Shown here piece after piece: positions 43,406 through 63,424 of a stretch of DNA of 64,000 nucleotides. Origin of the DNA: Bacteroidota bacterium (GTDB lineage: Bacteria; Bacteroidota; Bacteroidia; AKYH767-A; OLB10); the NCBI GenBank assembly GCA_046303115.1, contig JBKCGZ010000166.1:6389-70388 (forward strand), read 5' to 3'. The position numbers were made by a program, and so were the translations under genes. Each line of letters opens with the position of its first letter. The first letter of the stretch is position 1. Below the pieces are notes generated by a model. That model was given only the letters and a program-made list of their open reading frames with translations, had not been told where the DNA came from and did no database searches.

Positions 43406-44578
43406 TTAATTAAAAAAAGATTTATTCTCTCTAACCATTTGGCGTAACAAAACAGATGCACGATAACGATCATCATGATACTCTATATACAGTGAATCTA
43501 AAATCGATAACACTTTCTCCAATCCTATTTCATCTGCCCATTTAAGCAATCCCTTAGGATAGTTCACACCTTTGGTCATTGATAAATCAATATCTTCTGC
43601 AGTAGCAATTTTATAATAAAGTGCATCCGCTGCTTCATTGATAAGCATAGCTAAAACACGAATAACAATTTCACTTGATAAATCATCATCCGTTTTCGCA
43701 ACTGGATTAACCGCATTTTCGCCGTAATCATAATAACCCTTGCCAGTTTTTCTTCCTAGTCGCTCTGACTCTACCATTTTCTTTTGAATTAAAGACGGAC
43801 GAAAACGAGCATCATAATAAAACTGCTTCCATACAGTTTCTGTCACCGTGTAATTGATATCATTTCCGATTAAATCCATCAATTCAAACGGTCCCATTCT
43901 AAATCCGCCTTTCTCTCGCATCGCTGCATCAACAGTAGCCATATCAGCAATTCCTTCTTCAACAATCTTTAATGATTCACCATAAAACGGCCGAGCCACA
44001 CGATTCACAATAAATCCAGGAGTATCTTTAGCAATTACAGGAACTTTTTTCCAAGCCTGCATTAATGATTTACAATCTTCTGCTAAACCATCTTTTGTTT
44101 GAAGCGCTGGAATTACTTCTACTAGAGGCATTAATGGAGCTGGATTAAAAAAATGCAATCCGATAACTCGCTCAGGATTAGTACAAGCGGCAGCAACAGA
44201 AGTCACTGAAAGCGATGAAGTGTTTGATGCAAGTATACATGAAGCATTAACTACTTTCTCTAATGCTGAAAATAGTTCTTTCTTCACTTCTAGTATTTCA
44301 ACGACTGCCTCAATGATTAAATCCGCAGAAGCAAATCCACTCAATGAATCGATAACTGTAATTCGGCTACACAGAGCCGTTACATCCTCCTGCGACATTT
44401 TTCCTTTCTCTACTAACTTATTCAATGAAGATTCTGTTTTCTTCAGTGCATTATTGGCAGCTCCTTCTTTGGCATCAAACAAAAAAACAGAATGACCAGC
44501 AGATGCTGCAACTTGTGTAATACCGCTTCCCATTGCTCCCGCACCTATAACTCCAACAATTGATTTTTCTGATAACAT
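43406..44578 (-). CDS. paaH: 3-hydroxyacyl-CoA (3-hydroxyadipyl-CoA) dehydrogenase; start trimmed to ATG 44578
   Basis: VGVIGAGAMGSGITQVAASAGHSVFLFD Rossmann fold plus a 3HCDH C-terminal domain. The trimmed start abuts the paaG stop. Confidence 0.85.
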   Translation of the reverse strand: MLSEKSIVGVIGAGAMGSGITQVAASAGHSVFLFDAKEGAANNALKKTESSLNKLVEKGKMSQEDVTALCSRITVIDSLSGFASADLIIEAVVEILEVKKELFSALEKVVNASCILASNTSSLSVTSVAAACTNPERVIGLHFFNPAPLMPLVEVIPALQTKDGLAEDCKSLMQAWKKVPVIAKDTPGFIVNRVARPFYGESLKIVEEGIADMATVDAAMREKGGFRMGPFELMDLIGNDINYTVTETVWKQFYYDARFRPSLIQKKMVESERLGRKTGKGYYDYGENAVNPVAKTDDDLSSEIVIRVLAMLINEAADALYYKIATAEDIDLSMTKGVNYPKGLLKWADEIGLEKVLSILDSLYIEYHDDRYRASVLLRQMVRENKSFFN

Positions 44579-44579
44579 A

Positions 44580-45356
44580 TTATTCTCCTTTAAATACAGG
44601 CAAACGTTTTTCAAGAAAGGCATTTACTCCTTCTTTATGATCATAAGTTTGGCCAGCTTGTGCCTGATAGACTTCTTCTAATTTAAGCTGTTGTTTTAAA
44701 TCTGATGTTGCTGATTGATTCAACAACATTTTCGTTAAGGCGATACCTTTAGTAGGCATATTCGCTAATTGAATACAAATCTTATCTACTTCCAATTTAA
44801 GTACATCATCTGCAAAACACTTATACACCATTCCCATTTCTGCAGCTTCTTTACCTCCTACCTTATCTGCCAGCATCATTAATCCTGCAGCACGTTGAAA
44901 ACCGATTAGTCGCGGTAAAAAGAAAGTTCCACCGCTATCTGGAATTAAACCTATTTTACTAAAAGCTTGTATGAAAGATGCCGATTCTCCTGCTAAAACA
45001 ATATCGCAAGCTAATGCGATGTTTGCACCTGCTCCAGCAGCAACACCATGTACCACTGCCACAACTGGCTTCTGCGCTTCACGGATTTTAATAATGATTG
45101 GGTTGTAATGCTCATCAACAATTTTTTGAATTCCTGGTCCATCAGGAGCAATAGCCTCTGATAAATCCTGACCAGCACAAAACGCTTTACCTTCTGCTTC
45201 AATCAAGATACATCGAACAACATTATCAGCAGAAAAATTGTCGATTGCGGCTTGCATTTGCAAAGCCATTTCGCGATTAAAACTATTAAACTTTTCTGGG
45301 CGGTTTAACTTGATTCGGCCTACCCCATTTTCAATCGTAGCAGTTATTAAGCTCAT
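44580..45356 (-). CDS. Enoyl-CoA hydratase/isomerase (crotonase) of the paa pathway, PaaF/PaaG-type
   Basis: 258 aa. FCAGQDLSE...VHGVAAGAGANIALACDI oxyanion-hole region. Confidence 0.8.
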   Translation of the reverse strand: MSLITATIENGVGRIKLNRPEKFNSFNREMALQMQAAIDNFSADNVVRCILIEAEGKAFCAGQDLSEAIAPDGPGIQKIVDEHYNPIIIKIREAQKPVVAVVHGVAAGAGANIALACDIVLAGESASFIQAFSKIGLIPDSGGTFFLPRLIGFQRAAGLMMLADKVGGKEAAEMGMVYKCFADDVLKLEVDKICIQLANMPTKGIALTKMLLNQSATSDLKQQLKLEEVYQAQAGQTYDHKEGVNAFLEKRLPVFKGE

Positions 45357-45423
45357 CTTTAAATTTCTTACTACAAAGAAAACTAAAAAAGGCTTTCGTT
45401 AAGCTATATTTATGAATGAAGTA

Positions 45424-45918
45424 TCAGTGACATTTGAACTGCTCAAATGGTTGTCGACAGCCATTACAAAAGTGTAAAGCTTTGCAAGCAGTGGAACCAA
45501 ATCGGCTGGTAAGTGAGGTGTCTGTTGAGCTACAAAAAGGACAAGCCACTGGACCTTTATCATTATTGGCAAAAGGATGTAAATTTTCGAAACTCAGTTT
45601 CTCAGGAGGTGCAATTCCATAGGCCTTTAACTTTTCCTTGGTTTCATCGCTCATCCAATCGGTTGTCCATGCCGGTTTATAAATCGTTTTGATACTTGGA
45701 GTTAAACCAACCAATAAAAGTTTTGCTCTTATTTGCTCCTCCATACTCTTCAAGGCAGGGCAACCAGAATATGTTGGGGTAATGTCAACATCCACATTTG
45801 AACCAGTAATTCGCACATCACGAACGACTCCTAATTCAACAATGCTAATAGCGGGAACCTCAGGATCAGGAATAGAATTTAACAAGTCCCAGATTTCACT
45901 AATTTCTAATGTTACCAT
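45424..45918 (-). CDS. paaD: 1,2-phenylacetyl-CoA epoxidase subunit D (DUF59-type)
   Basis: 164 aa. DPEVPAISIVELGVV...TPTYSGCPA, C-terminal Cys pairs CPFC...CNGC. Confidence 0.85.
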   Translation of the reverse strand: MVTLEISEIWDLLNSIPDPEVPAISIVELGVVRDVRITGSNVDVDITPTYSGCPALKSMEEQIRAKLLLVGLTPSIKTIYKPAWTTDWMSDETKEKLKAYGIAPPEKLSFENLHPFANNDKGPVACPFCSSTDTSLTSRFGSTACKALHFCNGCRQPFEQFKCH

Positions 45919-46682
45919 ACTGCGTCAGGATATGTTCTAGGCAGATATTGCATTTCAGCTAAAAGATAGCCTAAGTGCTCGCTATGTATGCCTTTCAAAC
46001 CTCCAGTTGGGGAATAAGTATTATTTTCAGGAACAGACAATGTTGCTTTAGCAAAAATTTCATGTACCATTTTTGTCCATTCATCACGCAACGTTGCTTT
46101 ATCAAATGCAATTCCGTTGCTTATTAATAAAGCATCTATACTATCTTGCTCAAAAAGCTCATTCGTATATGGCCATAATTCGTTTAAGGAATTTTGAATA
46201 CGCTGATGACTTTCTGCTGTGCCATCACCTAAACGAACTACCCAATCACCTGCATGTCGAACATGATAAGTAACCTCCTTAATTGATTTAGCTGCAAGTC
46301 CTGAAATTGTTTCATCAGTGCTCTTCATCAAATCACGAAACATCAGATAATCGAAACAACCATTTAAAAACAGTTTCATCATGGTAAATCCGAAATCTTT
46401 ATTATCGGGCTGCTCCACCATTAATTTATTTCTAAACTCTCTTTCTCCTCTGCGAAACGCATAAAAATCTTCTGTTTTTCCGTCGCCTTCTATCTGAGCA
46501 GCATACGTATAAAAGCCACGTGACTGACCAATTAGATCTAGTGCTACATTACTCATTGCAATATCTTCTTCAAGGATAGGTCCATGACCTGTCCACTCAG
46601 AAATTCGTTGCGCATGTATTAGTGAATTATCAGCGATACGTAGACAAAAATCAATTAACGCTTTATTTAAGTCCGTCATCAT
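45912..46682 (-). CDS. paaC: 1,2-phenylacetyl-CoA epoxidase subunit C
   Basis: 256 aa. Ferritin-like helical protein, collinear with paaB and paaD. Confidence 0.85.
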   Translation of the reverse strand: MMTDLNKALIDFCLRIADNSLIHAQRISEWTGHGPILEEDIAMSNVALDLIGQSRGFYTYAAQIEGDGKTEDFYAFRRGEREFRNKLMVEQPDNKDFGFTMMKLFLNGCFDYLMFRDLMKSTDETISGLAAKSIKEVTYHVRHAGDWVVRLGDGTAESHQRIQNSLNELWPYTNELFEQDSIDALLISNGIAFDKATLRDEWTKMVHEIFAKATLSVPENNTYSPTGGLKGIHSEHLGYLLAEMQYLPRTYPDAVW

Positions 46683-46969
46683 ATTTGTTTTAACCCGTCA
46701 GCTGTTTTGAAAAAGTTGGGAGAGCGATACATTTTATCATTTGCGGGGTCGAAGAATGCACCTGCATCTTCCGGAGAAGAAGCGATGATAGCATCACTTG
46801 GAACAACCCAAATATTAACCCCTTCTTGTCTTCTACTGTAAACATCTCTTGCATTTAAAAGAGCAATTTCACCATCAGGAGCGTGAACGCTTCCTGCATG
46901 CTCATGAGGTGCACCTTGTTTTTTTTGAGTGAACACTTCCCACGTAGGCCATTGATGATTTGATTCCAT
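46679..46969 (-). CDS. paaB: 1,2-phenylacetyl-CoA epoxidase subunit B
   Basis: 96 aa. WPTWEVF...GEIALLNARDVYSRR. Confidence 0.9.
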   Translation of the reverse strand: MESNHQWPTWEVFTQKKQGAPHEHAGSVHAPDGEIALLNARDVYSRRQEGVNIWVVPSDAIIASSPEDAGAFFDPANDKMYRSPNFFKTADGLKQI

Positions 46970-46990
46970 TATTACTAATCAATTAAATTA

Positions 46991-47941
46991 TTAATTCACT
47001 TTTTTCTTAGTTGCATATGCTTTTGCCGCATCACGTACCCATTGTCCGTTTGCATGTGCGTCATTACGTTGTTTCAATCGTAACTTATTACAAGGTCCAT
47101 TTCCATTGATAACCTGGAAGAATTCATCCCAGTTTATTTCACCGAAATCATAATGGCGAGTTTCCTCATTCCATTTCAATTTATCATCTGGAATTTTTAA
47201 TCCGATAGCCTGAGCTTGCTCCACTGTTCTATCAATAAAGCGCTGACGTAAATCGTCGTTCGTATATAATTTCACTTTCCATTTCAAAAGATCGGCGCTG
47301 TTAGGAGAATCTTTATCAGAAGGTCCGAACATCATTAAAGCAGGCCACCACCAACGATTCATCGCGTCCTGAGCCATGTCTTTTTGCTCTTGAGTACCAC
47401 GCATCAGGTAAGCTAAAATCTGATAACCTTGTTTATTGTGAAAGTTCTCTTCTCTACAAATACGCAACATCGCACGCGAATAAGGTCCGTAAGAACACTT
47501 AGCCAACACCGTTTGGTTTACGATTGCTGCCCCATCTACCAACCAACCGATGGCTCCAATATCAGCCCAAGTTAAAGTCGGATAGTTGAATATAGAGGAA
47601 TATTTTGCTTTCCCTGATAATAGTTGATCGATCATTTCTGAACGATCCATACCTAAAGTTTCTGCTGCGCTATAGATGTACAACCCATGGCCAGCCTCAT
47701 CTTGAACCTTGGCAATTAAGATAGCCTTGCGTGCTAATGAAGGAGCTCTTGAAATCCAATTACCTTCCGGCAACATTCCAACTACCTCTGAATGAGCGTG
47801 TTGCGACATCATTCTCAACAATTGCTTGCGATACTTTTCAGGCATCCAATCCTTAGGCTCGATTACCTTACCAGCTTGAATACTGTCGTTGAATGCATTT
47901 TCTTTTTCGGATAAATCCTCCGTTTTAACATTTATATCCAT
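46991..47941 (-). CDS. paaA: 1,2-phenylacetyl-CoA epoxidase catalytic subunit A; start at ATG 47941
   Basis: Near-collinear with E. coli PaaA: [37 protein letters not shown]...[20 protein letters not shown]. Confidence 0.9.
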
Positions 47942-48137
47942 CGGAATTAAGGGTCTTATTAACTTTGCTAAAATAATAGTTACGACTAACCTACGCAAAT
48001 GAGTTTAGTCAGAATAAATTAACATTTTAGTCAGCATAAAGTTTATTCGAAGATGTTTAGATTTTATGTAACATCGTAGAAAATTTTCAGTATAAAGTCC
48101 ACCCGAAAGGGTATATATAATCAAACCACACACACTT

Positions 48138-48920
48138 ATGAAAAAGATTCTCCAATCTTTTGTCGCACTTTCCTTTTTATTGTTTTTAAGCTCATGTAGA
48201 AATGTACTTGAGGTAACTTATTTTCAAGAATCAAAGGATACCGCTGTTGTTAGCAAACAGAAATTTATTGAAGAACATTATGTTTCTGTGATACAACCAT
48301 ACGATATTTTATCAATATATGTAAGCAGTTTGAATCCTGAAGCTACTTCTTTTTTTAATGTATTTAGTAAATCAGAGGGCCCAACTGTTGGGGATAGTTA
48401 CTCAACCCGTCCTAATGTAGGTTACCTTGTAGATGCTGAAGGAAATATAGATATGCCGTTAGTAGGTAAAATCAAACTTGTAGGACTATCAACCATTCAG
48501 GCGAAAAGTTATATAGAAAAGCAATTAGAAAAATACTTACAACAACCAAGCGTAAGAATTTACTTTGAAAATTTCAAAGTGACTTTACTTGGTGAGGTAA
48601 CACATCCAGGAGTTTACACGGTAACAAACGAAAAACTAACTTTACCTGAAGCAATAGGTTTAGCAGGTGATTTATCCATTTTTGGTAACAGAAAAGAAAT
48701 AATGCTTATCCGTGAAGTAAAAGGAGAGAAATTTTATATACCAATTGACTTAACAAGAAGAGATTTATTTTACTCGCCATATTACTACTTACATTCAAAC
48801 GATATTTTATATGTACCACCTGTGAAAGACAAGGTATCACAGTCAGACAACTTCTACAAAATAGCTCCTTTACTCATCAGTTTAGGAACGTTAGCCGCAT
48901 TTGTGTTATTTAACCGATAG
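48138..48920 (+). CDS. wza: Polysaccharide export outer-membrane protein (Wza/GumB family)
   Basis: 260 aa. Signal peptide. Poly_export motif PYDILSIYV, followed by an SLBB domain. Confidence 0.85.
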   Translation: MKKILQSFVALSFLLFLSSCRNVLEVTYFQESKDTAVVSKQKFIEEHYVSVIQPYDILSIYVSSLNPEATSFFNVFSKSEGPTVGDSYSTRPNVGYLVDAEGNIDMPLVGKIKLVGLSTIQAKSYIEKQLEKYLQQPSVRIYFENFKVTLLGEVTHPGVYTVTNEKLTLPEAIGLAGDLSIFGNRKEIMLIREVKGEKFYIPIDLTRRDLFYSPYYYLHSNDILYVPPVKDKVSQSDNFYKIAPLLISLGTLAAFVLFNR

Positions 48921-48948: not shown

Positions 48949-51429
48949 ATGAATCAGGACACTACTAACGCCTACGACTACAAAGTAAACAACCCCAATA
49001 ACGATCAGAAAAACGAAAGTGAAAATACCATTAACCTTTCGCAAATAATAAACAAGTATTTCCTTCGCTATTGGTATTTATATGTTTATACATTAAGCCT
49101 TTCATTAGTTACAGCTTACTTTTATAACTGGTATGCAGACAGAGTTTATTTTTCATCATGTACCGTATTGATTAAAGACGAGAAGAAAAACGTTAACAGC
49201 AGTGATTTATTAACGCAGCTAGGGGCATTTAATAACGAAGGCGGTATTGAAAATGAAATAGGGATTATACGTTCAAGAATGCTCATATCCAAAACGATTG
49301 AAGAATTACAACTTTATAAAAGCTATTATCTAATTGGTGATGTAAAAACTTCTGAAATTTTTGCACTCAAGCCTTTTGAATTAAAAGAAGATACTCTTTA
49401 TAGTCTTGCTTTTAATACATCCATTAAATTGGAAATTATAAACAGTAATAAGTATAAACTAACTTACCAAAAGGGAAATACAGAACATATAGGTTATTAT
49501 TTATTTAATCGTAAAATAAGCAACGATTTAGGAATATTTTCAATCGATAAGACATCTGACTTTAGTCGACAGCCATACGATTCAAAAAATTTCACAAAAA
49601 GAAAATTCATTGTTAAAGTTGCAGATAAAAGTCTATTAACTGATATTTATCAAAGCGCTTTAAAAGCAGAGCCCATCAGCAAACAAGCTTCGATGCTTCA
49701 AATATCAATTCAGGGAGCTACTCCATCTAAGAATGAAGCATTCTTAAATAAACTTTGCGAGCTTTATGTAAAGAAAGGGATTGAAGTCAAAAATGAATAT
49801 GCTGTTAACACACTTAACTTCATTGAACAGCAGCTTGGGGCATTGACTGGTGAGATTAATGAGAATGAAGTTAACGTAGAAAGATTCAGAGTTTCAAGAG
49901 GGATAACTGATTTATCTATTGAAGCCAACGCATATTTAGAAAGTGTAAAAAACTTCAACGGACAAATTTCACAATTGGCAGTGCAAAGCAGCTTTCTTGA
50001 TTACCTTGGTGGTTATGTTAAATCAGACAATAAAAATTTAACAGGAAATATATCACCAGGAAGTATATTAGTTAATGATCCATTATTACAAAGCTTAGTT
50101 TTAAAACTAAATGAATTAGAAAACAAGAAAAAGTCGCAATCTAACTTATCTAAGGAAGACAATCCGTTAATGGTTAGTTTAAATACTGAAATTGCAAATA
50201 CTAAAGCGGCATTATCAGAAAACATTAAATCACTCAAAAGTGGAATTAATGCTTCCTTAAGCGAAGCCAGAAGTCAGCGAGGAAGTGTTGAATCTAAGTT
50301 AAGAAGATTACCAAGTGCACAACGAGAATTACAAGGGATGTTAAGAGGTTCAAATATTAAAGAACAGCTTTACTCCTACCTATTACAGAAAAAAGCAGAG
50401 ACAGCTATCTTATTAGCATCAACAACTGCTGATAACCGAGTAATTGATAATGCAAGGACATTTATCAAGCCTCTTAAGCCGATACAAAGTTTAAGTTACA
50501 CCATTGCCGTTATATTCGGTTTGATATTACCTGCGTTCTTTATTTATATCAGAACTGCTTTTAACGATCGCATTATCGACCGTAATGATTTAGACGCAAG
50601 AACAAACATTCCTGTAATAGGTATGATTGGATTAAGTGCCTCAAAGTCAAACTTGGTTGTAACTGAAAAGCCGAACTCTCATATTTCGGAAGCATTTAGA
50701 ACAATCCGTACCAACTTGCAATATTTCAATCAAGGCAATCAAAAAGCAACTATTCTCATAACATCATCAATCTCATCGGAAGGAAAAAGTTTTACGTCTG
50801 TAAACCTTGCGTGTATGATGGCTATGTCTGGTAGAAAAACAATCCTGGTAGGTTGCGACTTACGTAAACCTAAAATAGCTATCGGATTTGACTTCGTATC
50901 AGAGATTGGATTAAGTAATTATTTGATTGGATTAAATACCGAAAAAGAAATTATTCAAAACTCGGGAACGATTCCTAATCTTGATATTATCTTATCAGGA
51001 CCTAAGCCTCCTAACCCATCTGAATTAATTATCTCTCCAAAAATGGAAGAGTTATTCGTTTATTTAAAAGCGAATTATGATTATATCATTCTCGATACAC
51101 CTCCTGTTGGATTGATCACAGATGCGATGGTACTTTCAAAGTATGTAGATGTAAGTATATACATGGTTCGTCAGCGTGTAACCAGAAAACACCATTTGAA
51201 CTTTATCAATAAACTATATAACGAAGGTAAATTAAAAAATGTCTGCATTGTATTTAACGCTATCAAGGCATCTAACAGAAGCTATGGTTATGGATATGAA
51301 TACGGATATGGATATGGGTATGGATACGGTTATGGCTATGGTTATGGCTATTACGAAGAAGATAAGGAAAGAAAAAGTTTAAAATCTACTTTTAAAAAGC
51401 TATTTAAACGAAAGAGTTCCAAAGCCTAA
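48949..51429 (+). CDS. wzc: Polysaccharide co-polymerase / BY-kinase (Wzc-like tyrosine autokinase)
   Basis: 826 aa. Wzz-like N-domain with two TMs. Walker A-like TSSISSEGKSFTSVNLA. Walker B YDYIILDTPPVG. Tail SYGYGYEYGYGYGYGYGYGYGYGYY. Confidence 0.85.
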   Translation: MNQDTTNAYDYKVNNPNNDQKNESENTINLSQIINKYFLRYWYLYVYTLSLSLVTAYFYNWYADRVYFSSCTVLIKDEKKNVNSSDLLTQLGAFNNEGGIENEIGIIRSRMLISKTIEELQLYKSYYLIGDVKTSEIFALKPFELKEDTLYSLAFNTSIKLEIINSNKYKLTYQKGNTEHIGYYLFNRKISNDLGIFSIDKTSDFSRQPYDSKNFTKRKFIVKVADKSLLTDIYQSALKAEPISKQASMLQISIQGATPSKNEAFLNKLCELYVKKGIEVKNEYAVNTLNFIEQQLGALTGEINENEVNVERFRVSRGITDLSIEANAYLESVKNFNGQISQLAVQSSFLDYLGGYVKSDNKNLTGNISPGSILVNDPLLQSLVLKLNELENKKKSQSNLSKEDNPLMVSLNTEIANTKAALSENIKSLKSGINASLSEARSQRGSVESKLRRLPSAQRELQGMLRGSNIKEQLYSYLLQKKAETAILLASTTADNRVIDNARTFIKPLKPIQSLSYTIAVIFGLILPAFFIYIRTAFNDRIIDRNDLDARTNIPVIGMIGLSASKSNLVVTEKPNSHISEAFRTIRTNLQYFNQGNQKATILITSSISSEGKSFTSVNLACMMAMSGRKTILVGCDLRKPKIAIGFDFVSEIGLSNYLIGLNTEKEIIQNSGTIPNLDIILSGPKPPNPSELIISPKMEELFVYLKANYDYIILDTPPVGLITDAMVLSKYVDVSIYMVRQRVTRKHHLNFINKLYNEGKLKNVCIVFNAIKASNRSYGYGYEYGYGYGYGYGYGYGYGYYEEDKERKSLKSTFKKLFKRKSSKA
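51281..51354. repeat. Tandem hexanucleotide (GGN-TAY)n repeat encoding the (GY)12 tail of Wzc
   Basis: gctatggttatggatatgaatacggatatggatatgggtatggatacggttatggctatggttatggctattac. Confidence 0.8.
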
Positions 51430-51445
51430 CTTAATAAATTAGACG

Positions 51446-53959
51446 ATGAAACAAATTCGTGCTAAACTAAAATCTGTTTTAGACGGAGAGACCCAAACAC
51501 TATTTAAAAACAGTGTTTGGGTTTTTGTGTCAAACATTTATGGTGTATTGCTCGCCTTCCTGCGATCAATAGTGATAGCACGTGGATTAGGTGCTGAAAT
51601 CCTGGGAATTTACTCAGTCATAATTGCTTTTGTTTTAACTATTCAAGAAGTAATAAAACTAAATGTCCCATTAGGAATTATTAAATTCGGCGCACAATTT
51701 ATTTCACACAAATCACCTGAAAAAGTAATCAGCCTTCTAAAAAGAGGCATCATGTATAGCATGCTTTCTGCATTGCTATCGGTTATTGTCATTGCAATAA
51801 TAACTCATTTTTTATATCCGCACTTTTTCGATATTGTAGGACTACAGAAATTTATCATTCTTTATGCGGCAGTAAATGGAATTTGCTTTTTAGACAATAT
51901 AGGAAGAGCTGTATTAAAAATCTATTATCGATTTAAAGTGAATTCCATCGTTCAAATAATAATGGACACAATTGAATTTGCGGCCATAACACTTTCTATT
52001 TATTATTTCCCAAATAATCTTGACTATTTCTTTTATACAGTCATATCGACTAAATTATTGAATTCCTTAATCTGTAATTTGTCAGTTATTATTGAATTAA
52101 GAAAGGACTTGTTCCCTTATTTAAAAACACCTGTTAGTGCTATCAAAAGTCATTACTCCGAAATACGTCATTTTATATTTGGAAATTCATTTGGAAACAC
52201 TTTGAAAACTTTTTTAAATCAAGGCGATATTCTTCTATTGAATCTCTTAGGCACTCATGCCACTGTAGGATTTTATGCGGTATCCAAAAAACTAGCTTAT
52301 GCTATTTTAATTGTAACTGACCCTTTAGTAACTTCTATTTACCCTCAATTAGCTCACCTAGTTGCACAAAACAAATGGAAAGAATTAAAGTTAATGATAG
52401 GTAAAATTACCAGAATTGCATTAATCCCATCAGCAATTGCGACAATTATAATTTTCTTTTTGAAAGGAAATATTATAACATTTCTTTACGGGCCATCATT
52501 TATTCAATCTGTACCAACCTTCTTTATTCATTTTATGGGTGCTGCATCTGGCTCAATATTATTTTGGACGTTGCCATTAATGCAAGGCCTCAACCTAACT
52601 AACAAAAGAATTAAGATTTATTTGTTTGCAATTCTAATCAATTTCGTTTTAGCTTATCTTCTGACTTCACATTTAGGGCCTGTTGGGGTTGCAATTGGTT
52701 TGCTATCTGCTAATTTATTTATCAATTGCTATTTTGATTTTTATTGTCTGAAAAGAATAAATAAAAAAATTACGTTAAGTGATGATACTAGAGAAACAGT
52801 ATACATATATTTATCGCCATATGATATATTAAGACCGAGAACAAATCAACTAAGTGATGTTCGTTTTTGTGATGGGTTTGTACAAAATAATAGAACTATC
52901 CACCTCGTAGTTCCCTTTGTAAAAAGAGAAGATAATATTTCTAAAGAAGATGTTCCAAGAATTTATGGAATTTCAGACAAATTAAACATTCACTATTTAA
53001 ACACAAATTTTAAATCCGATGTAAAAGGGAAAATTAATCTAATAAAAATAGTTGTTCTTAATTACTTCAAAATAAGAAAACTCTCTAGTGATAAACAACG
53101 TAATTACATTGTTATTTCAAGGAGCCTTGCCATCTTATTTCCCTTTTTAATTACAAAGGCGTTTAACAGAAAAAATTTAAAGTTTACTTATTGGGCACAT
53201 GACTTTAGTAAGAAAAAATTATTTCATTGGAGCTACGGCTTATGCGATAATATAATTGCTACAAATTCTTCTATTACAAATTCAATTTATCAGCTTACCA
53301 ATTACCCTATTAACAAAACAATTATTTCATCAAATCCAATTACACAAAATCAAGCTGATGACTACATTGATAAAATTGAAGCCAGAGACTTACTTGAAAT
53401 AAAACATTCTAAACAAGTGGTTGTTTATACTGGAAAGTTAGCAATTGACTATAACTTAGAATTAGAATATATTTTAAAAGCCGCTAAGCGTTTACCAAAA
53501 TTTGAATTTATTTTTACCGGTGGCACTCCTTTAGCCGTTGATTATTGGAAAGAATGGTGCGATGATAATGGAATTGACAATGCGGTTTTCACTGGATATA
53601 TTCACGATTATCAAAAAATAAAATACTATCAGTTTGCTGCTGATATCCTTGTTTCATATTATACAAAACAGGGACATGATGTCAACTATAATTTCCCCAA
53701 TAAAATATGTGAATACATGCTCACTGGGAATCCAATTGTCACTCCGAACTACCCAGCCACTCAAGATATTTTAAATGAACACAACTGTTATTTCGTAGCA
53801 CCAGAAAATGATATCGAGTTAGCAAACAAAATAAAAATGGCTATAGAAGACGAAGAAAAATCAGCAATTATCGCTAGCCAGGCACGTTTTGATGTCCAAC
53901 AAAACACTTTTAAAATAAGAGTTTCAAATATTATTAACTTTTTAGAAAGCAATGACTAA
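51446..53959 (+). CDS. Fusion protein: Wzx-type polysaccharide flippase (MOP superfamily, about 440 aa, about 12 TM) plus GT4-family glycosyltransferase
   Basis: 837 aa, one uninterrupted ORF. The N-half is all TM helices. The C-half has a GT-B fold with the E-x7-E motif NKICEYMLTGNPIV and no TM. Confidence 0.7.
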   Translation: MKQIRAKLKSVLDGETQTLFKNSVWVFVSNIYGVLLAFLRSIVIARGLGAEILGIYSVIIAFVLTIQEVIKLNVPLGIIKFGAQFISHKSPEKVISLLKRGIMYSMLSALLSVIVIAIITHFLYPHFFDIVGLQKFIILYAAVNGICFLDNIGRAVLKIYYRFKVNSIVQIIMDTIEFAAITLSIYYFPNNLDYFFYTVISTKLLNSLICNLSVIIELRKDLFPYLKTPVSAIKSHYSEIRHFIFGNSFGNTLKTFLNQGDILLLNLLGTHATVGFYAVSKKLAYAILIVTDPLVTSIYPQLAHLVAQNKWKELKLMIGKITRIALIPSAIATIIIFFLKGNIITFLYGPSFIQSVPTFFIHFMGAASGSILFWTLPLMQGLNLTNKRIKIYLFAILINFVLAYLLTSHLGPVGVAIGLLSANLFINCYFDFYCLKRINKKITLSDDTRETVYIYLSPYDILRPRTNQLSDVRFCDGFVQNNRTIHLVVPFVKREDNISKEDVPRIYGISDKLNIHYLNTNFKSDVKGKINLIKIVVLNYFKIRKLSSDKQRNYIVISRSLAILFPFLITKAFNRKNLKFTYWAHDFSKKKLFHWSYGLCDNIIATNSSITNSIYQLTNYPINKTIISSNPITQNQADDYIDKIEARDLLEIKHSKQVVVYTGKLAIDYNLELEYILKAAKRLPKFEFIFTGGTPLAVDYWKEWCDDNGIDNAVFTGYIHDYQKIKYYQFAADILVSYYTKQGHDVNYNFPNKICEYMLTGNPIVTPNYPATQDILNEHNCYFVAPENDIELANKIKMAIEDEEKSAIIASQARFDVQQNTFKIRVSNIINFLESND

Positions 53960-54893: not shown

Positions 54894-56286
54894 AATAGCA
54901 TTTATAATCGATAAAGGGTTTATGCAATCTCTAATTGAGAAATGCAGGAAACAACTTTTGTCTGATTTAAATTGCAGTATTGATACAATTCAATGGAATC
55001 ATGAATTACGAAAAAGCTTTTCAAAAGCCGATGAATATGATTTTGTGATTAATTTTTCAACGCATACATTATTTAAGAAAGATTATCCGCACGAAAATCT
55101 TATACAAATTCCATTTATTTCTAATTTGCGATCAGGAATATCTAGAGAATTATATCAAAGCATTATCAATAATGATGATAGTTTTTTACTGAATACAATA
55201 AAAACGTTTGCAGGAAAACAATCTTTTCAAATACATGGGCATCGCTATTTACTAATCCATCATTCGTATAATCGATCATTTAAATTTATAATTGATAAAA
55301 TTCCAAACTTATTGATTGAATCGATAAATCGTTTCCATATTGAGAACCAAACAATCTGGCAAGACAATCATCCGAAGTCAATACCAATTAGAAAATACAA
55401 GTTTGAACTATTCATTAAGAAGATAAAGCATTACCTTAAAACTGCATTTACCTACCATTATTGGAAAACTGGTATTATAGAAAACACCGTTTCGGAAGTG
55501 CTAAAAAACAAAATACTGCTTAAACAAGTACAGTGGATAAAAACTAAAAACAAACGAGATTTTATCGCTGACCCTTTTGGTTTTACTACAGGAAATGGTG
55601 ACTATATCATTTATGAGAAATACAATTGGAATAAAAAGAAAGGGCATATTGAAGTAAGCGAACGCTTAACACAAAGAATTGTATTTAAATTAAAAGCTGA
55701 TTTCCATTTTAGTTATCCGTTTGTATTGGAAGACTCAAACGAAATTTATATTATTCCAGAAACACACCAGACCAATTCGATTGACCTATACAAATGGAAT
55801 GATAATAAACAGGAAATGGAAATGACAAAAACAATAATTGATAATTTTCCTGGAGTAGACAATACCATCTTAAAACACAATAATAAATATTGGTTATTCT
55901 GCACGACATCAAAGTATAAAATGTCAGACCATCAATTAAATCTATTTTATGCAGATAAATTAACAGGAAATTGGACCCCACACCCCCTGAATCCCATTGT
56001 AACATCAATCACTAATTCAAGACCAGCAGGAAGCTTTATCAAAATAGGAGGAAAAATTATTCGTCCTTCACAAAATAGCGGATTAACCTATGGTGGCAAA
56101 ATAGTTTTCAATGAAATCATAGAACTATCAGAAACAAAATATGCTGAAAAGATTATTGAAGTGTTCTCTCCAGAAGATTTCAAAAATAAAAGTATAAAGG
56201 GTATTCATACGATAAGCCCATTGGGCAATTCAACTTTAATTGATGCCAAATTCACAGGATTTAAAATTGGTAAACTTCATTTCTAG
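54886..56286 (+). CDS. Hypothetical two-domain protein: N-terminal alpha/beta domain plus C-terminal GH43-like five-bladed beta-propeller-type domain
   Basis: 466 aa. The C-half starts FIADPFGFTTGNGDYIIYE and continues WTPHPLNPIV...GSFIKIGGKIIRP...GLTYGGKIVF, resembling a GH43/GH32-type propeller. Confidence 0.4.
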   Translation: MIKIAFIIDKGFMQSLIEKCRKQLLSDLNCSIDTIQWNHELRKSFSKADEYDFVINFSTHTLFKKDYPHENLIQIPFISNLRSGISRELYQSIINNDDSFLLNTIKTFAGKQSFQIHGHRYLLIHHSYNRSFKFIIDKIPNLLIESINRFHIENQTIWQDNHPKSIPIRKYKFELFIKKIKHYLKTAFTYHYWKTGIIENTVSEVLKNKILLKQVQWIKTKNKRDFIADPFGFTTGNGDYIIYEKYNWNKKKGHIEVSERLTQRIVFKLKADFHFSYPFVLEDSNEIYIIPETHQTNSIDLYKWNDNKQEMEMTKTIIDNFPGVDNTILKHNNKYWLFCTTSKYKMSDHQLNLFYADKLTGNWTPHPLNPIVTSITNSRPAGSFIKIGGKIIRPSQNSGLTYGGKIVFNEIIELSETKYAEKIIEVFSPEDFKNKSIKGIHTISPLGNSTLIDAKFTGFKIGKLHF

Positions 56287-56287
56287 T

Positions 56288-57265
56288 ATGCAGATCATCA
56301 ATTATCCTTTAACAGGCTATCAAAAAGAAGACTACTTTCATTTATATGAAAAAGTTGTTGATTCGCTGAAAACCAATCCAGCTATTAAATGCATCTGTAC
56401 TTTTGGAGGTGTAAATCAACCAGGCATTTCTGATATTGACTTGCTGATCACGTTTAAAAATGATTGCCGTTTTAGTGGTGATATAATTTCCGATCTGACA
56501 GAAAGAGAAAGATTGTTGTTTACACATGGAGTAATGGCACTTTCAGAGCAACATTGGTTTCAGAATAAATCCTACGCGATGTGGGACAATCAAAAATTAA
56601 TTTTCGGAGAACAACCTGACGGTAACAACATTTTAGTTTCGAATGAAGAATTATCAGCTCTAAAAAAACAAACCGCTTTAGAATTTCTATTTACTAACTA
56701 TATTGACTTGACGTTGCAGAAGGAATATGGAGTAATTAAATTGAGAGATTTACTTCAACATACCAAAGGACTAACGTACGATTTAAATTATTTGAATTTG
56801 TTGAACACTTCAATCGATAATTACATCTCAAATGCAAAAGAATGGATTGCTAACTGGCATCAGAAACAACCAAGCAATCGAGAGATTGAAAAATGGTTTA
56901 TTGATTTTCATCAAGCTTATTCAAAATTTATACAATCAGTATTTGAAGCAGACAAAATTTATTTGCCAGGATCTGTAAATAGAAATTTTTCAAAAAATAT
57001 TATACTTAAATCATCTAAAACAATCTCATATACACGCAGTGGATTACTTCTTCCTTCATTCATTGCTCCTCTAGGGCAAAAACGATATTTAAAATTAATG
57101 AACAAACTCAATAATTTTGAGTTTTCATTACCTTACACAGCTAACGCCGATAACAGTATATTAGAAAAAAGAATTCAGTTCTTTAAAGAAATGAAAATGT
57201 ACAATCAATTACATTTTCCAAAACTTGGATTACTTACAACAAGTTTAATGTCAAAATTAGTTTAA
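56288..57265 (+). CDS. Pol-beta-superfamily nucleotidyltransferase (NTP_transf_2-like) protein, function unknown
   Basis: 326 aa from ATG 56288. ICTFGGVNQPGISDIDLLITF is a canonical hG[GS]x(7-10)[ST]DxDhhh motif. Confidence 0.5.
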   Translation: MQIINYPLTGYQKEDYFHLYEKVVDSLKTNPAIKCICTFGGVNQPGISDIDLLITFKNDCRFSGDIISDLTERERLLFTHGVMALSEQHWFQNKSYAMWDNQKLIFGEQPDGNNILVSNEELSALKKQTALEFLFTNYIDLTLQKEYGVIKLRDLLQHTKGLTYDLNYLNLLNTSIDNYISNAKEWIANWHQKQPSNREIEKWFIDFHQAYSKFIQSVFEADKIYLPGSVNRNFSKNIILKSSKTISYTRSGLLLPSFIAPLGQKRYLKLMNKLNNFEFSLPYTANADNSILEKRIQFFKEMKMYNQLHFPKLGLLTTSLMSKLV

Positions 57266-57985: not shown

Positions 57986-59062
57986 ATGAAAGTTTTACAT
58001 ATCATATGGTCGTCGAATATAGGAGGGATAGAAAGCGTTGTGCTTAATTTAGCATCAGCGCAGCAAAACCATGGTATAGTAAAACCTACACTCTTTGCAG
58101 CCAAATCAGAAGGTCCATTATTTGAAAAGGCACAAGAAAAAAATATTGATCTAATAAAAGGTAATTTCAAAAAAGGAAGCAGCAATATTTTCAAGATTAA
58201 TGAATGTATAAAGTTATTTCAGCAATTCGACATACTCCATCTTCATTCTTTCAATCCAATAATTGCACTTGCTGCTATTCGTTCAAAACGAAAAATTGTT
58301 TTTACCGAACATGGAAACTTTGCCTTTGAGAGAAAGCAAGGAATTTCAGAGAAATTTTCTAAAAAGCTTCAAGAATTATTTATAAATAAATGTGCCAATC
58401 ACATCACTTTCAATTCTGAATTTTCAAAAGCAACTGCAATTGCAAAATATCATCTAACTAAAAAACCATTGAGTGTTGTTTATAACGGAGTTGAATTACC
58501 CCCAACGGTTGAAAAGAAAACAAAATCATCTGATACTATTCGAATTGGATTTGTTGGTCGCTTAGTAGAAGTTAAAAGAGTTGATCGCCTAATTGAAGTT
58601 ATCTCAGCTATTAATGATAAATCTAAAATCAAGGTAGAACTCATAGGTGATGGTCCACTGAGGCAGAATATTCTTAATCAACTAGCTGAAAAAAATTTAA
58701 CAAATATTATTAAGCTTTTAGGATTCAAAAATAATTTATCGATTTATTATAGCCAGTGGGATCTACTACTTGCGCCTTCGACTAATGAAGCATTTGGACT
58801 TGTCGCAATAGAAGCATATTCTAACGGATGCGCGGTAGCTGTATTTAGTGATGGCGGGGGGTTAGCTGAATTAGTAAATCAATGTGAACCCAATATGGTT
58901 TTTAAATCAACTAACGAACTTACCGCGTTCATTGAATCACTAATCGAAAAGTCACAAGATCTGAACGAAATTAACATTCGAAATCATCGTAAAGCATTTG
59001 CTCAGCAATTCTCCATTGAAAAGATGGAATCAGCAATTAACCAAGTTTACTTATCTTTATAA
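57986..59062 (+). CDS. Glycosyltransferase family 4
   Basis: 358 aa. EAFGLVAIEAYSNGCAVAV (E-x7-E). IGDGPLRQ. Confidence 0.85.
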   Translation: MKVLHIIWSSNIGGIESVVLNLASAQQNHGIVKPTLFAAKSEGPLFEKAQEKNIDLIKGNFKKGSSNIFKINECIKLFQQFDILHLHSFNPIIALAAIRSKRKIVFTEHGNFAFERKQGISEKFSKKLQELFINKCANHITFNSEFSKATAIAKYHLTKKPLSVVYNGVELPPTVEKKTKSSDTIRIGFVGRLVEVKRVDRLIEVISAINDKSKIKVELIGDGPLRQNILNQLAEKNLTNIIKLLGFKNNLSIYYSQWDLLLAPSTNEAFGLVAIEAYSNGCAVAVFSDGGGLAELVNQCEPNMVFKSTNELTAFIESLIEKSQDLNEINIRNHRKAFAQQFSIEKMESAINQVYLSL

Positions 59063-59063
59063 C

Positions 59064-60962
59064 ATGTGTGGAATTAATGGATTTATGATGCTGGGAAACA
59101 GCTTGCCTATTGAAGCAAGTGAACACCTCGTGCGTATGAATCAACGTATTCAACACAGAGGCCCTGATGATCAAGGTGCTTATATCAACACTGAAAAAGG
59201 AATTGCTCTTGGACATTTACGACTAAGTATCATTGATTTGTCAGATGCCGGACATCAACCCATGTTTGATGAAAGAGGGAATTGCATTGTTTTTAATGGG
59301 GAGATTTATAATTATAAATCCATAAAAAAAGAAATCACTGACTGCGTTTTTAAATCCGACAGTGATACAGAAGTGTTATTACAACTTTATCACAAAGAAG
59401 GGCATGCTGCATTACAAAAGTTAAATGGAATGTTTGCATTTGCTTATTTCGATAACAAGAATAATGTATTAAAATTAGCAAGAGATAGGGCTGGTAAAAA
59501 ACCGCTCTACTACTCTGCTATGGGCGGAGTGTTTTCGTTTTCATCTGAAATAAAAGCGCTCTTAGAATTACCTTGGATAAAGAAAGAAATTGATGAAGAA
59601 GCGCTCTATCACTTTTTAACCTTTAATCATGTAGATGCGCCTTCTACATTTTTCAAAGGTATTAAAAAACTTGGTGCTGGTGAATACATGACCGTTAGCA
59701 ATAATGGAATTATAGAATTGAAATCCTATTATGACATACACTACGAGAATTTAAATCATTCAAGTGAAAAATTAATTGAAGAAACATTATTTGAAAAGTT
59801 AAATAAGTCGGTTGATTTAAGAATGTTAGCAGATGTACCTGTTGGTGCATTTTTAAGTGGTGGCGTCGACTCAAGTGCCGTTGTTGCAATGATGAGGGCA
59901 AGAACAGCAGGATCAATTAAAACATTCTCTGTTGGATTTGAAGGACAGCCAGACTACGATGAAAGGATATATGCTCAAAAAATAGCGAAGCAGTTTAACA
60001 CTGATCATTATGAAAAGATTGTAGGTAAAGAAGATATCGAAAACTTTTTGCCATCTGTTGTTTCCATATTTGATGAACCCATGGCGGATGCCACTTGTAT
60101 ACCTGTTTATTTTATTTCTGAATTAGCAAGGAAACACAATACCATTGTTGTACAAACGGGAGATGGTGCAGATGAGTTATTAGCAGGATATAATAGCTGG
60201 CAAAAATATGAACAGATATATCCTTATTACAATTTATTGAACAAGCTTCCAAAAAGTCTATTACAACTTGCGTCATCAACTATTGGATATGATGATAACA
60301 AAACAGGAATCAAAGAAATAATTTACCGTGCTGCTAACGGACAAGAATTATTTTGGGGAGGAGCAAAAGCATTTAAAGAAAATACTAAAAAGCAGATTCT
60401 ATCATCTGAATTTCTAAGCAATCATGCATCATTAGATTCTTATGCTGTAATCAAAAAGCATCTGAACGAATTTCAAAAAATTCGAGAGAAAAACAATTGG
60501 TTAAGTGATAAGGATTGGATGTGCTATCTGGGATATAAGTACTTAATTCCTGCTAAATACCTCTATCGGATGGATCGTATAGGAATGGCACATAGTATTG
60601 AAATCAGAAATCCTTTTTTAGATTATGAATTTGTAGATTATGCATTATCGATTCCATATTCGCTAAAGTCAAAAAACAAAATTCCAAAATACATTTTAAA
60701 AAAATCGCTAGAAGGGACATTGCCAAATGAAATTCTTTATCGAAAGAAAATGGGATTCTGTGTTCCATTGAGAGAATGGTCGCAAGATATTATTATCAGA
60801 AATATTGAAAGTGATTTAAGCAGCTTTTGTAAAAACACGAACATCTTTAGTGAGTCGGGATTAAGAACACAAATTAACGCGATGAAGAACGGGAAGAAAG
60901 ATTACACGAATAATCTTTGGACGATCTATTTCATCATGCAATGGTTTAAAAAATGGATGTAA
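59064..60962 (+). CDS. asnB: Asparagine synthase (glutamine-hydrolysing) family amidotransferase
   Basis: MCGINGFM (Ntn Cys2). PP-loop FLSGGVDSS. Confidence 0.88.
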   Translation: MCGINGFMMLGNSLPIEASEHLVRMNQRIQHRGPDDQGAYINTEKGIALGHLRLSIIDLSDAGHQPMFDERGNCIVFNGEIYNYKSIKKEITDCVFKSDSDTEVLLQLYHKEGHAALQKLNGMFAFAYFDNKNNVLKLARDRAGKKPLYYSAMGGVFSFSSEIKALLELPWIKKEIDEEALYHFLTFNHVDAPSTFFKGIKKLGAGEYMTVSNNGIIELKSYYDIHYENLNHSSEKLIEETLFEKLNKSVDLRMLADVPVGAFLSGGVDSSAVVAMMRARTAGSIKTFSVGFEGQPDYDERIYAQKIAKQFNTDHYEKIVGKEDIENFLPSVVSIFDEPMADATCIPVYFISELARKHNTIVVQTGDGADELLAGYNSWQKYEQIYPYYNLLNKLPKSLLQLASSTIGYDDNKTGIKEIIYRAANGQELFWGGAKAFKENTKKQILSSEFLSNHASLDSYAVIKKHLNEFQKIREKNNWLSDKDWMCYLGYKYLIPAKYLYRMDRIGMAHSIEIRNPFLDYEFVDYALSIPYSLKSKNKIPKYILKKSLEGTLPNEILYRKKMGFCVPLREWSQDIIIRNIESDLSSFCKNTNIFSESGLRTQINAMKNGKKDYTNNLWTIYFIMQWFKKWM

Positions 60963-62155: not shown

Positions 62156-63424
62156 ATGAACTTTCGAATTTGGCTCAAGTGGTTTAAGTCGCTGCACATT
62201 ACTAAAAAATGGTTTATTGTTCTGATATTAATCAGACCAATCGTCGATAATTTTTATGAGCTGAAAGAAACATCTTCGTTAGCAAGTCCGCTATACATTG
62301 TTGGAGTATTAACTCCCATATTAATTTTATTTAGCGCTACCTCTAATAAACTAGCACGCATTAAACAATCTGTTTATGACAGTCCGTTTAAATTATTTAC
62401 CTACTTCTTGGTCGGAAACTGTTTAATTTTCTATGCTACACAGTTGTCTATATCATCAATCGGTGATGTGATTAAGTATACTACACCAGCTTTAATTTTC
62501 TTCTATTGCAGGATGTTTGTTCAGACAAAAGCTGATCTCGATGGAATCTTATTCGCATGTTTACTAGCATGCATCTTCCCATTAGGAATGATGTTTTACG
62601 AATCGATTTTTAACCCAATTGCGGTTGAGTATGTGAGTGAAGGACGAGGTGGTGGTGCGCGAATTCGTGGTGCTTATGCAGACATTATGAATTATGCAAT
62701 CTACATCGAGATTTTATTTATCACGATAAGTTATTACTTCCTAACGTATATCTATAATAAAACAAAACTTAAAGTAACTCCATTTCATATTGTTATTACA
62801 CTAATGATTGTATTTTTTGGATTAACTAAAATTAAGCAGGTATCGACGTGGGCCGTAACATTAACAGTTTTTGTGTTTTTGATGGTACATAACCTTAAAA
62901 ATGTAAAAGGATTAATCGTAGTATTTTTTGTTTGTATTATTGGAGGATTATTCTTTGCTGAAGATATTTACAACAAGCAAATTGCTCCATTAATTGACAA
63001 AGAAATCAAAGTTGTAGATAATGAAAATGATAAGTCGCAAGCACTTAACGGAAGGATGAGTCGATGGGAAAAATATTTTGAGATATGGGAACAGATGCCA
63101 GTATTGAATCACTTTATAGGCGTACCTAGTTCTAATTTTAAAGAAACAGATAATATGATTAGTGCCGGCATGCACTCCGATTATGTGCGACTATTATTTT
63201 TAACTGGATTTATTGGAGTTGGTGCCTACACGCTTTACTTTATTCTAATTAACACCGCCTATTTCCAACTTTTAATTCCAGAAAAGTTTCTCTTAATATC
63301 GACTACTGCATCCTTGCTTTTATGGTCTGTCAGCACTATTCCAACATTATATGCACCATGGATGTACTTTATGTTTCCAGTAGTAGCTTATGCATCACTC
63401 CCTAAAAAAATGCAGTATTCATGA
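62156..63424 (+). CDS. Wzy-type polymerase / O-antigen-ligase-like polytopic membrane protein
   Basis: 422 aa, about 10 TMs, with a large periplasmic loop (KEIKVVDNENDKSQALNGRMSRWEKY...) typical of Wzy_C proteins. Confidence 0.55.
   Translation: MNFRIWLKWFKSLHITKKWFIVLILIRPIVDNFYELKETSSLASPLYIVGVLTPILILFSATSNKLARIKQSVYDSPFKLFTYFLVGNCLIFYATQLSISSIGDVIKYTTPALIFFYCRMFVQTKADLDGILFACLLACIFPLGMMFYESIFNPIAVEYVSEGRGGGARIRGAYADIMNYAIYIEILFITISYYFLTYIYNKTKLKVTPFHIVITLMIVFFGLTKIKQVSTWAVTLTVFVFLMVHNLKNVKGLIVVFFVCIIGGLFFAEDIYNKQIAPLIDKEIKVVDNENDKSQALNGRMSRWEKYFEIWEQMPVLNHFIGVPSSNFKETDNMISAGMHSDYVRLLFLTGFIGVGAYTLYFILINTAYFQLLIPEKFLLISTTASLLLWSVSTIPTLYAPWMYFMFPVVAYASLPKKMQYS

Follow-up and report, generated by a model that had tools for sequence, protein, structure and literature searches.

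Mycobacterial MviN/MurJ, a MOP flippase of lipid-linked glycans, bears a cytoplasmic C-terminal pseudokinase domain, a layout like that of the fused protein described here. Among Wzx flippases, WzxE was the first for which an experimental structure was obtained, and it shows 12 transmembrane (TM) helices arranged in two lobes (PMC11706664). No description of a Wzx fused to a glycosyltransferase (GT) was found in the literature. The DNA analyzed here, hereafter the window, is a stretch of 64,000 nucleotides (nt) from a Bacteroidota metagenome-assembled genome (MAG; GenBank GCA_046303115.1, contig JBKCGZ010000166.1). Positions 51446–53959 of its forward strand hold one open reading frame (ORF) that runs from an ATG start to a TAA stop over 837 codons, and the absence of internal stops confirms the single uninterrupted ORF reported in a preliminary description of the window. 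The product, identical to NCBI MFN5347271.1 (Bacteroidota MAG), consists of a Wzx module followed by a GT4-type module (Table 1).

The fused gene recurs in independent assemblies. The 90% cluster of the window protein contains 19 members, nearly all of 837 amino acids (aa), and fused homologues of 837–840 aa with 82–93% identity form five clusters with sequences from ENA, JGI, Logan and NCBI. One more fused lineage, the sixth (P0006, 78% identity), is represented by a fragment that is cut off by the contig end but continues across the joint. Intact fused ORFs of 837–840 codons are also found in three GTDB species-representative genomes, all of them freshwater Bacteroidota MAGs, with identities to the window of 92% (L015), 87% (L016), and 82% (L017). 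Many substitutions surround the joint in the fused sequences, yet the frame is never broken, and no indel was found within residues 400–500, joint included, across the fused sequences compared. The preliminary description had proposed a covalent Wzx–GT4 fusion with the caveat that an assembly frameshift might have joined two genes. Such a frameshift is excluded by the independent assemblies, the six protein clusters and the indel-free joint, and the same architecture is present in related genomes, namely in at least six protein clusters and three species-level MAGs.

The closest unfused relatives reveal how the fused gene would have arisen. There, wzx (449 aa) is followed, after a 6-nt spacer, by a gene for a 247-aa methyltransferase and then by the GT gene (389 aa), whose GTG start adjoins the methyltransferase stop, while the flanks are the same. 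In the split loci L012, L013, L014, L018, L019, and L022, Wzx is 72–77% and the GT 71–80% identical to the window, and in L020 and L021 the identity is 65%. The methyltransferase of these loci matches Methyltransf_24 as well as O-methyltransferase and rhamnosyl-O-methyltransferase-like families. Residues 1–449 of the fused protein equal the whole stand-alone Wzx, and residues 450–837 equal residues 2–389 of the stand-alone GT (449 + 388 = 837). At the split junction the sequence reads ...KKINSEINLSLSTT, a stop, the methyltransferase and (V)NTVYIYISPYD, as opposed to ...KRINKKITLSDDTR-ETVYIYLSPYD at the fused junction. The fused genes are shorter by exactly 756 nt than the split loci L018, L019, and L022, and by 762 nt than the more distant L020 and L021. 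The 756 nt correspond to the wzx stop, the 6-nt spacer, the 744-nt methyltransferase gene and the GT start codon, and no methyltransferase remnant was found inside the fused ORF. Gap placement in a MAFFT alignment of the DNA would make the tether between the two modules the 3′ end of the methyltransferase, a placement that was rejected because the match at the protein level (IN..I.LS..T) is to the Wzx tail. Since the distant outgroups L001 (54%/50% identical in Wzx/GT) and L007 (about 50%/46%) also have the order Wzx–methyltransferase–GT, the split state is, judged by sequence comparison, the ancestral one. Without this methyltransferase, the polysaccharide was probably altered by the loss of an O-methyl group. 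In the split-type MAG locus L014 (13127–16252), the two downstream GT4 genes are apparent as fragments only (133 and 162 aa), and the 238-aa methyltransferase is missing, which suggests decay or assembly gaps.

In a neighbor-joining tree of the Wzx half, the fused sequences form one group in 200 of 200 bootstraps, and a single deletion event followed by vertical inheritance would be the simplest reading. Selection was assessed between the window and L005, which share 75% nucleotide identity and are collinear over 837 codons. Synonymous differences (pS 0.73–0.77) are saturated, whereas nonsynonymous differences (pN) are low in both modules, at 0.087 for Wzx and 0.14 for the GT, and rise to 0.32 in the 16-codon tether. 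These values show that both halves have long been kept under strong purifying selection while fused.

The arrangement of the two halves was modeled with AlphaFold 2 (AF2) from a 106-sequence alignment of fused sequences, stand-alone Wzx and stand-alone GTs, which was checked for the correct placement of each half. The full model has a mean predicted local distance difference test score (pLDDT) of 93.3 and a predicted template modeling score (pTM) of 0.69. Its N-terminal half consists of twelve long helices, the last of which (residues 412–445) leads into the first strand of the GT, β1 (451–456). With TM cores taken from this model, 31 lysine and arginine residues lie in loops on the side of the N- and C-termini, as opposed to 4 on the other side. 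Both termini are thus predicted to be cytoplasmic, and this N-in/C-in topology of 12 TM helices would place the GT domain in the cytoplasm, as the preliminary description had anticipated. Its domain boundary likewise agrees with the model, in which the TM12 core ends at residue 435, the helix at 445, and β1 of the GT spans 451–456. What tethers the GT is the cytoplasmic tail that Wzx itself possesses, in which residues 436–445 extend the TM12 helix; the GT is attached about 15 residues past TM12 with no added linker. Variability along the protein peaks at residues 443–449, a segment of constant length with invariant positions on both sides. No conserved in-frame ATG, GTG or TTG that could start a complete separate GT was found in the fused genes, and for lack of such a start the GT is predicted to be produced solely as part of the fusion.

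The preferred reading, held with a probability of about 0.8, is that of a bifunctional inner-membrane Wzx–GT that arose by an in-frame 756-nt deletion in one freshwater Bacteroidota ancestor. The deletion would have taken the wzx stop, the gene for the 247-aa sugar O-methyltransferase and the GT start, joining two tight neighbors in frame. The product would be a complete 12-TM Wzx followed without a linker by a complete GT at the cytoplasmic face. Here, the tethered GT would add one sugar to the repeat unit linked to undecaprenyl diphosphate (Und-PP) at the inner leaflet; the finished unit would be flipped by the attached Wzx module, and both activities would be kept. The fusion would also enforce 1:1 co-expression and membrane proximity. 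In the GT-B fold it is the N-terminal domain that binds the acceptor, and this acceptor-side domain would be pinned beside TM12. It may be conjectured that 1:1 co-expression could limit dead-end Und-PP intermediates, the accumulation of which is harmful (PMC11706664). As the fusion arose through loss of the intervening methyltransferase gene, it is probably a consequence of that loss which was tolerated and may have been mildly useful, and it is not a new mechanism.

Several points weigh against the reading as a single-origin bifunctional protein. Both the enzymatic activities and the substrate are assigned from homology only, and all fused sources are metagenome assemblies, with no isolate among them. 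The tree of the GT half has the same topology as that of the Wzx half but supports the fused group weakly, in only 69 of 200 bootstraps, and a second fusion or recombination within the fused clade may have occurred. Exact breakpoints cannot be fixed at a divergence of ~20–25%, which accommodates a deletion from stop through start or one shifted by a codon, and Glu450 may correspond either to residue 2 of the GT or to a TAA that has mutated. Finally, the full model reaches a pTM of 0.69, compared with 0.86 for the N-terminal half alone, which makes the inter-domain orientation unreliable.

How rare the architecture is bears on whether the fusion is more than a by-product. Every relative retrieved, 87 of Wzx (36–77% identity) and about 120 of the GT, is a stand-alone protein, in line with the earlier statement that the two are normally separate. 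A phmmer search of 1.84 billion cluster representatives returned 6746 hits, and architecture was judged on the best 150 of these. Among those 150, only P0236 (847 aa, 19–23% identical) combines the two domains in this order, and no replicated second Wzx–GT4 fusion was found; other Wzx–GT fusions may exist elsewhere. P0236, which corresponds to L024 209–2752 on an NCBI contig of GCA_040960975.1, was considered as a second fused family and rejected: its cluster has no other member, its contig measures 3.4 kb, and not one of the 80 metagenomic relatives closest to it carries the fusion; it may reflect a stop-loss mutation or a sequencing error. Four further GT relatives, P0191 (762 aa), P0228 (622 aa), P0155 (807 aa), and P0195 (744 aa), are apparently fused to other domains (NTP_transf_2-like, methyltransferase or a second GT) and are possible artefacts.

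The relatives of P0236 (L025–L104, n = 80) include 59 loci with Wzx and GT as separate ORFs and five with a GT that lacks a related upstream Wzx, so that wzx is directly followed by the GT in 59 of the 64 informative loci of this ~20%-identical family (e.g., L025 1028–3592). The two genes of a pair are probably translationally coupled: their median spacing is −4 nt, and 32 of the 53 measured pairs overlap. Over their full length, the distant GTs score 73–106 bits against the fused GT and 17–34 bits against the other GT4s of the window, and some of them carry the signatures YxxPxKxxEYM and Y[TS]GHL. That wzx and this GT subfamily stay paired across about 20% identity suggests a functional link between Wzx and the subfamily of the fused GT. 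In the ten top-ranked distant loci, wzx and the GT lie in one frame with a single stop between them. A conserved in-frame stop with programmed readthrough was rejected on the grounds that 10 of 59 pairs share a frame, less than the one-third expected by chance, that the stops are mixed and that the ranking is biased.

These pairs lend some weight to an adaptive coupling along the lines of the preliminary description, in which the GT active site sits at the cytoplasmic entrance of Wzx, the last-sugar step hands the unit to the flippase, and the fusion was selected for. A fusion is Rosetta-stone evidence of a functional interaction, the tether is short and invariant in length, and wzx adjoins the same GT subfamily in distant loci at that tight spacing. 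Furthermore, Wzx prefers its cognate complete unit (PMC6436433), and the build-up of Und-PP intermediates is harmful (PMC11706664). Such coupling is nonetheless unlikely. Coincident gene loss alone explains the event, the fused state is limited to one narrow clade while the other relatives work unfused, and the tail is equally constant in length in unfused Wzx (449 aa). In addition, besides the fused GT, which may not be the last to act, the locus has at least three more GTs, and the inter-domain geometry is of low confidence. Equally doubtful is the broader notion that the fusion is an extreme form of an ancient partnership between Wzx and GTs with the motif Y-x7-E, in which a unit-completing GT docks on Wzx and hand-off is coupled. 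If it were true, the protein would be a natural, ready-made sample for visualizing a GT–flippase complex.

Whether the GT half of the proposed bifunctional protein is an enzyme was judged from its family, fold and motif. Pfam models Glycos_transf_1, Glyco_trans_1_4 and Glyco_trans_1_2 match residues 645–828 (the first two at 645–814) with scores that reach the gathering thresholds (PF13692, 52.1 bits; PF00534, 44.2 bits; PF13524, 28.4 bits). The models of the N-terminal GT4 domain, PF13439 and PF13579 (Glyco_transf_4), gave no match at E ≤ 0.01, and this domain is recognizable by fold only. A sequence search of the PDB with the GT half yielded weak matches. The C-terminal half is 79–80% identical to the stand-alone 389-aa GTs P0015–P0018. 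In the AF2 model, pLDDT mostly exceeds 90 over residues 451–837, where alternating β and α elements build the two Rossmann domains of a GT-B fold, and Foldseek with the full model retrieves HepE/Alr3699, MshA, BshA, PglA, and PimA at TMt of about 0.75–0.78. The E-x7-E motif named in the preliminary description stands in part. Its second glutamate is E756 in KICEYMLTGNPIV, while its first is replaced by Tyr748, as alignment of EPFGRVIVEAM in HepE with YNFPNKICEYM gives Y748-x7-E756. The form with two glutamates is typical of many retaining GT-B enzymes, though not of all GT4. YNFPNKICEYM is invariant within the fused clade. Because the tyrosine at the first-glutamate position is conserved throughout the family, stand-alone members included, Tyr748 is best regarded as a subfamily trait and not as decay. 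Glycosyl transfer by the GT half would follow from its homology. A catalytically dead GT serving as a regulatory or scaffolding domain, like the pseudokinase on mycobacterial MviN/MurJ, is very unlikely. The replaced glutamate and the missing Pfam match to Glyco_transf_4 would fit it, but stand-alone members have the tyrosine too, as does the distant GT family encoded next to wzx (YASPMKMFEYM). Moreover, the donor-binding region does not vary within the fused clade, pN of this half is 0.14 with saturated pS, and the model shows, with high confidence, both Rossmann domains of a complete GT-B fold.

The membrane half likewise belongs to a known family. PF01943 (Polysacc_synt) matches residues 20–304 at 29.4 bits (cut-off 28.2), and precomputed tables list PF01943 and PF13440 (Polysacc_synt_3) for both fused and stand-alone orthologues. 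The half is 77% identical to the Wzx of L012, and a sequence search of the PDB with it gave no match. Modeled alone by AF2, it reaches a pLDDT of 91 and a pTM of 0.86, and Foldseek ranks WzxE at positions 1–4, followed by MurJ and MATE transporters. The best match, the lipid III flippase WzxE (9g9p; TMq 0.79, TMt 0.86, root-mean-square deviation 3.4 Å over 421 columns), shares with the model a MOP fold of 12 TM helices. Flipping of Und-PP-linked repeat units by this module is presumed from these similarities, and no second Wzx candidate occurs among the locus genes examined. The alternative of a generic polytopic anchor for a GT4 enzyme could draw on the narrow margin of the PF01943 score and the empty PDB sequence search, yet it is highly improbable: the stand-alone 449-aa orthologues occupy the wzx position behind wza–wzc and are labeled oligosaccharide flippase by their sources, WzxE tops the fold search ahead of MurJ and MATE proteins, the count of 12 TM helices equals that of WzxE (PMC11706664), and the examined locus genes offer no other Wzx. 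With WzxE as best structural match, an unrelated membrane anchor was rejected at the level of homology and fold, and the TM half is Wzx-like, as originally described.

An A7 homopolymer (52763–52769) lies 24 nt upstream of the joint in the window and in L015 only; it is absent from L016 and L017, which are both still fused. That an assembly or sequencing error, such as a frameshift or chimeric join at this run, merged two genes has a negligible chance of being right and was rejected even though every data source is metagenomic, given that the same 837-aa frame occurs in dozens of independent assemblies at 78–93% identity, that L016 and L017 are fused without the run, and that a whole-gene difference of 756 nt, and not a 1-nt shift, separates fused from split relatives. 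Adding or removing one A at the run would lead to a stop within 2–4 codons and a Wzx-only product of 443–445 aa. Programmed slippage to such a product was rejected as well, since L016 and L017 lack the run and stops outside the reading frame are frequent, occurring every 8–11 codons in the AT-rich fused gene. For the same reasons, the position of the run near the joint is probably due to chance.

The fused gene is part of a co-directional (+) array encoding Wza, Wzc, several GTs, and a Wzy_C-like protein (Table 1), which is a Wzx/Wzy-type polysaccharide locus for an exopolysaccharide (EPS) or capsule and encodes at least three further GTs besides the fused one. For several genes between 48138 and 62107, the best NCBIfam matches are XrtA/PEP-CTERM-associated EPS components (pepcterm_TyrKin/ChnLen for Wzc, pepcterm_export for Wza, stp2 for the GT4 at 57986, and eps_aminotran_1 at E 1e-151 for the AsnB-like protein), all below the curated cut-offs. 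The 466-aa protein matches GINT1_N (PF24793), the N-terminal domain of plant glucosamine inositolphosphorylceramide transferase 1, and weakly GH43. Its gene has no NCBIfam match and is odd in a bacterial EPS locus, and its position is kept in all fused and split loci. The 313- and 341-aa ORFs that flank it belong to no NCBIfam family and are conserved in all related loci; the former (53952) shares its first 8 nt with the end of the fused gene, stop codon included. The AsnB-type ORF begins with a TTG inside the preceding GT4 gene, with an overlap of 65 nt, and would encode 654 aa. As its orthologues measure 625–634 aa and family models match from residue 23, the true start probably lies about 20 codons downstream. 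Upstream of wza, a divergent phenylacetate operon (paaABCD and beta-oxidation-like genes) occupies 43406–47998 (−), and this paa–EPS synteny is kept down to about 50% protein identity (L001, L002, L005, L007, and L014).

Table 1. Features of the fused gene and of the surrounding polysaccharide locus, in window coordinates.
Feature	Position	Strand	Basis
Wza-type exporter	48138-48920	+	Pfam/NCBIfam
Wzc-type tyrosine autokinase/co-polymerase	48949-51429	+	Pfam/NCBIfam
Fused wzx-GT ORF, 837 aa + TAA stop	51446..53959	+	ORF reading
Wzx (PST/MOP) flippase module, residues 1-449	51446..52792	+	Pfam PF01943, identity to L012 Wzx, AF2 + Foldseek
Membrane-embedded region, 12 TM helices, cores within residues 24-435	51515..52750	+	DSSP of AF2 model, hydropathy
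Tether, residues 436-450 (KRINKKITLSDDTRE)	52751..52795	+	AF2 DSSP, alignments
Fusion joint	52792..52793	+	Alignment with split relatives, where the 756 nt sit
GT4-type GT-B module, residues 450-837	52793..53956	+	Pfam PF00534/PF13692, stand-alone GTs, Foldseek
Degenerate E-x7-E: Tyr748 (53687-53689) for first Glu, Glu756 (53711-53713) as second	53687..53713	+	HepE alignment
NTP_transf_2-like ORF, 313 aa	53952-54893	+	Faint NTP_transf_2/Polbeta match
GINT1_N-like protein, 466 aa	54886-56286	+	PF24793, E 1e-32
341-aa ORF	56240-57265	+	Faint NTP_transf_2/Polbeta match
Methyltransferase	start 57268	+	
GT4	start 57986	+	
AsnB-type amidotransferase	58998-60962	+	
Second GT4	start 60953	+	
Wzy-like polymerase	62156-63424	+	Wzy_C 28 bits, under Pfam cut-off 31.7

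The fusion bears on how cytoplasmic GTs pass a finished lipid-linked unit to Wzx and on whether a physical complex forms. Its maintenance by selection would mean that a GT still functions when its N-terminus is anchored about 15 residues away from TM12 of a flippase, and the conserved distant wzx–GT pair nominates one GT subfamily as the likely partner of Wzx. The protein is also a candidate single-chain sample for cryo-electron microscopy, while the split sister loci offer a natural comparison of fused and split states. As regards its origin, it represents a clean case of gene fusion through the precise loss of an intervening gene.

Compared with the split sister loci (L012, L014, and L018–L022), the window has the same genes, order and flanks (paa operon, wza, and wzc), 65–80% protein identity and the same length of the Wzx tail. 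The sister loci carry three separate, tightly packed genes, whereas the window lacks the methyltransferase and holds the other two in one frame. The distant wzx–GT pair shares the Wzx family, the GT subfamily, the gene order, and the immediate adjacency, and differs in consisting of two ORFs in 59 of 59 loci that hold both, the sole fused case, P0236, being an unreplicated singleton. The solved GT4 retaining GT-B enzymes (HepE/Alr3699 4xso–4xsu, MshA, BshA, PglA, and PimA) have in common with the fused GT the two-Rossmann fold (TMt 0.75–0.78), Pfam Glycos_transf_1 and the second glutamate of the E-x7-E region; in the fused protein the first glutamate is a tyrosine, the N-terminus is joined to a transporter, and the identity is 11–18%. 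In mycobacterial MviN/MurJ the extra domain has a regulatory, non-catalytic role and further elements follow it, whereas the extra domain of the fused protein would be an enzyme of the pathway. Stand-alone Wzx such as E. coli WzxE (PDB 9g9p/9g97; PMC11706664) likewise has 12 TM helices, two lobes and cytoplasmic termini, and stand-alone wzx loci also encode Wza, Wzc, Wzy, and GTs; relative to WzxE, to which it is about 17% identical, the fused protein carries a C-terminal GT-B enzyme of 388 residues. Synthases such as BcsA, Alg8, and hyaluronan synthase (PMC8892547) also unite a GT domain and a membrane translocation module in one polypeptide. However, they are processive GT2 enzymes of the GT-A type that thread the polymer through their own channel, while the fused protein combines a GT of the non-processive GT-B type with a MOP-fold flippase of lipid-linked oligosaccharides, so that the likeness to synthases appears conceptual only. 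Both modules belong to ordinary, well-known families, and it is their covalent combination that is restricted to a few uncultured lineages.

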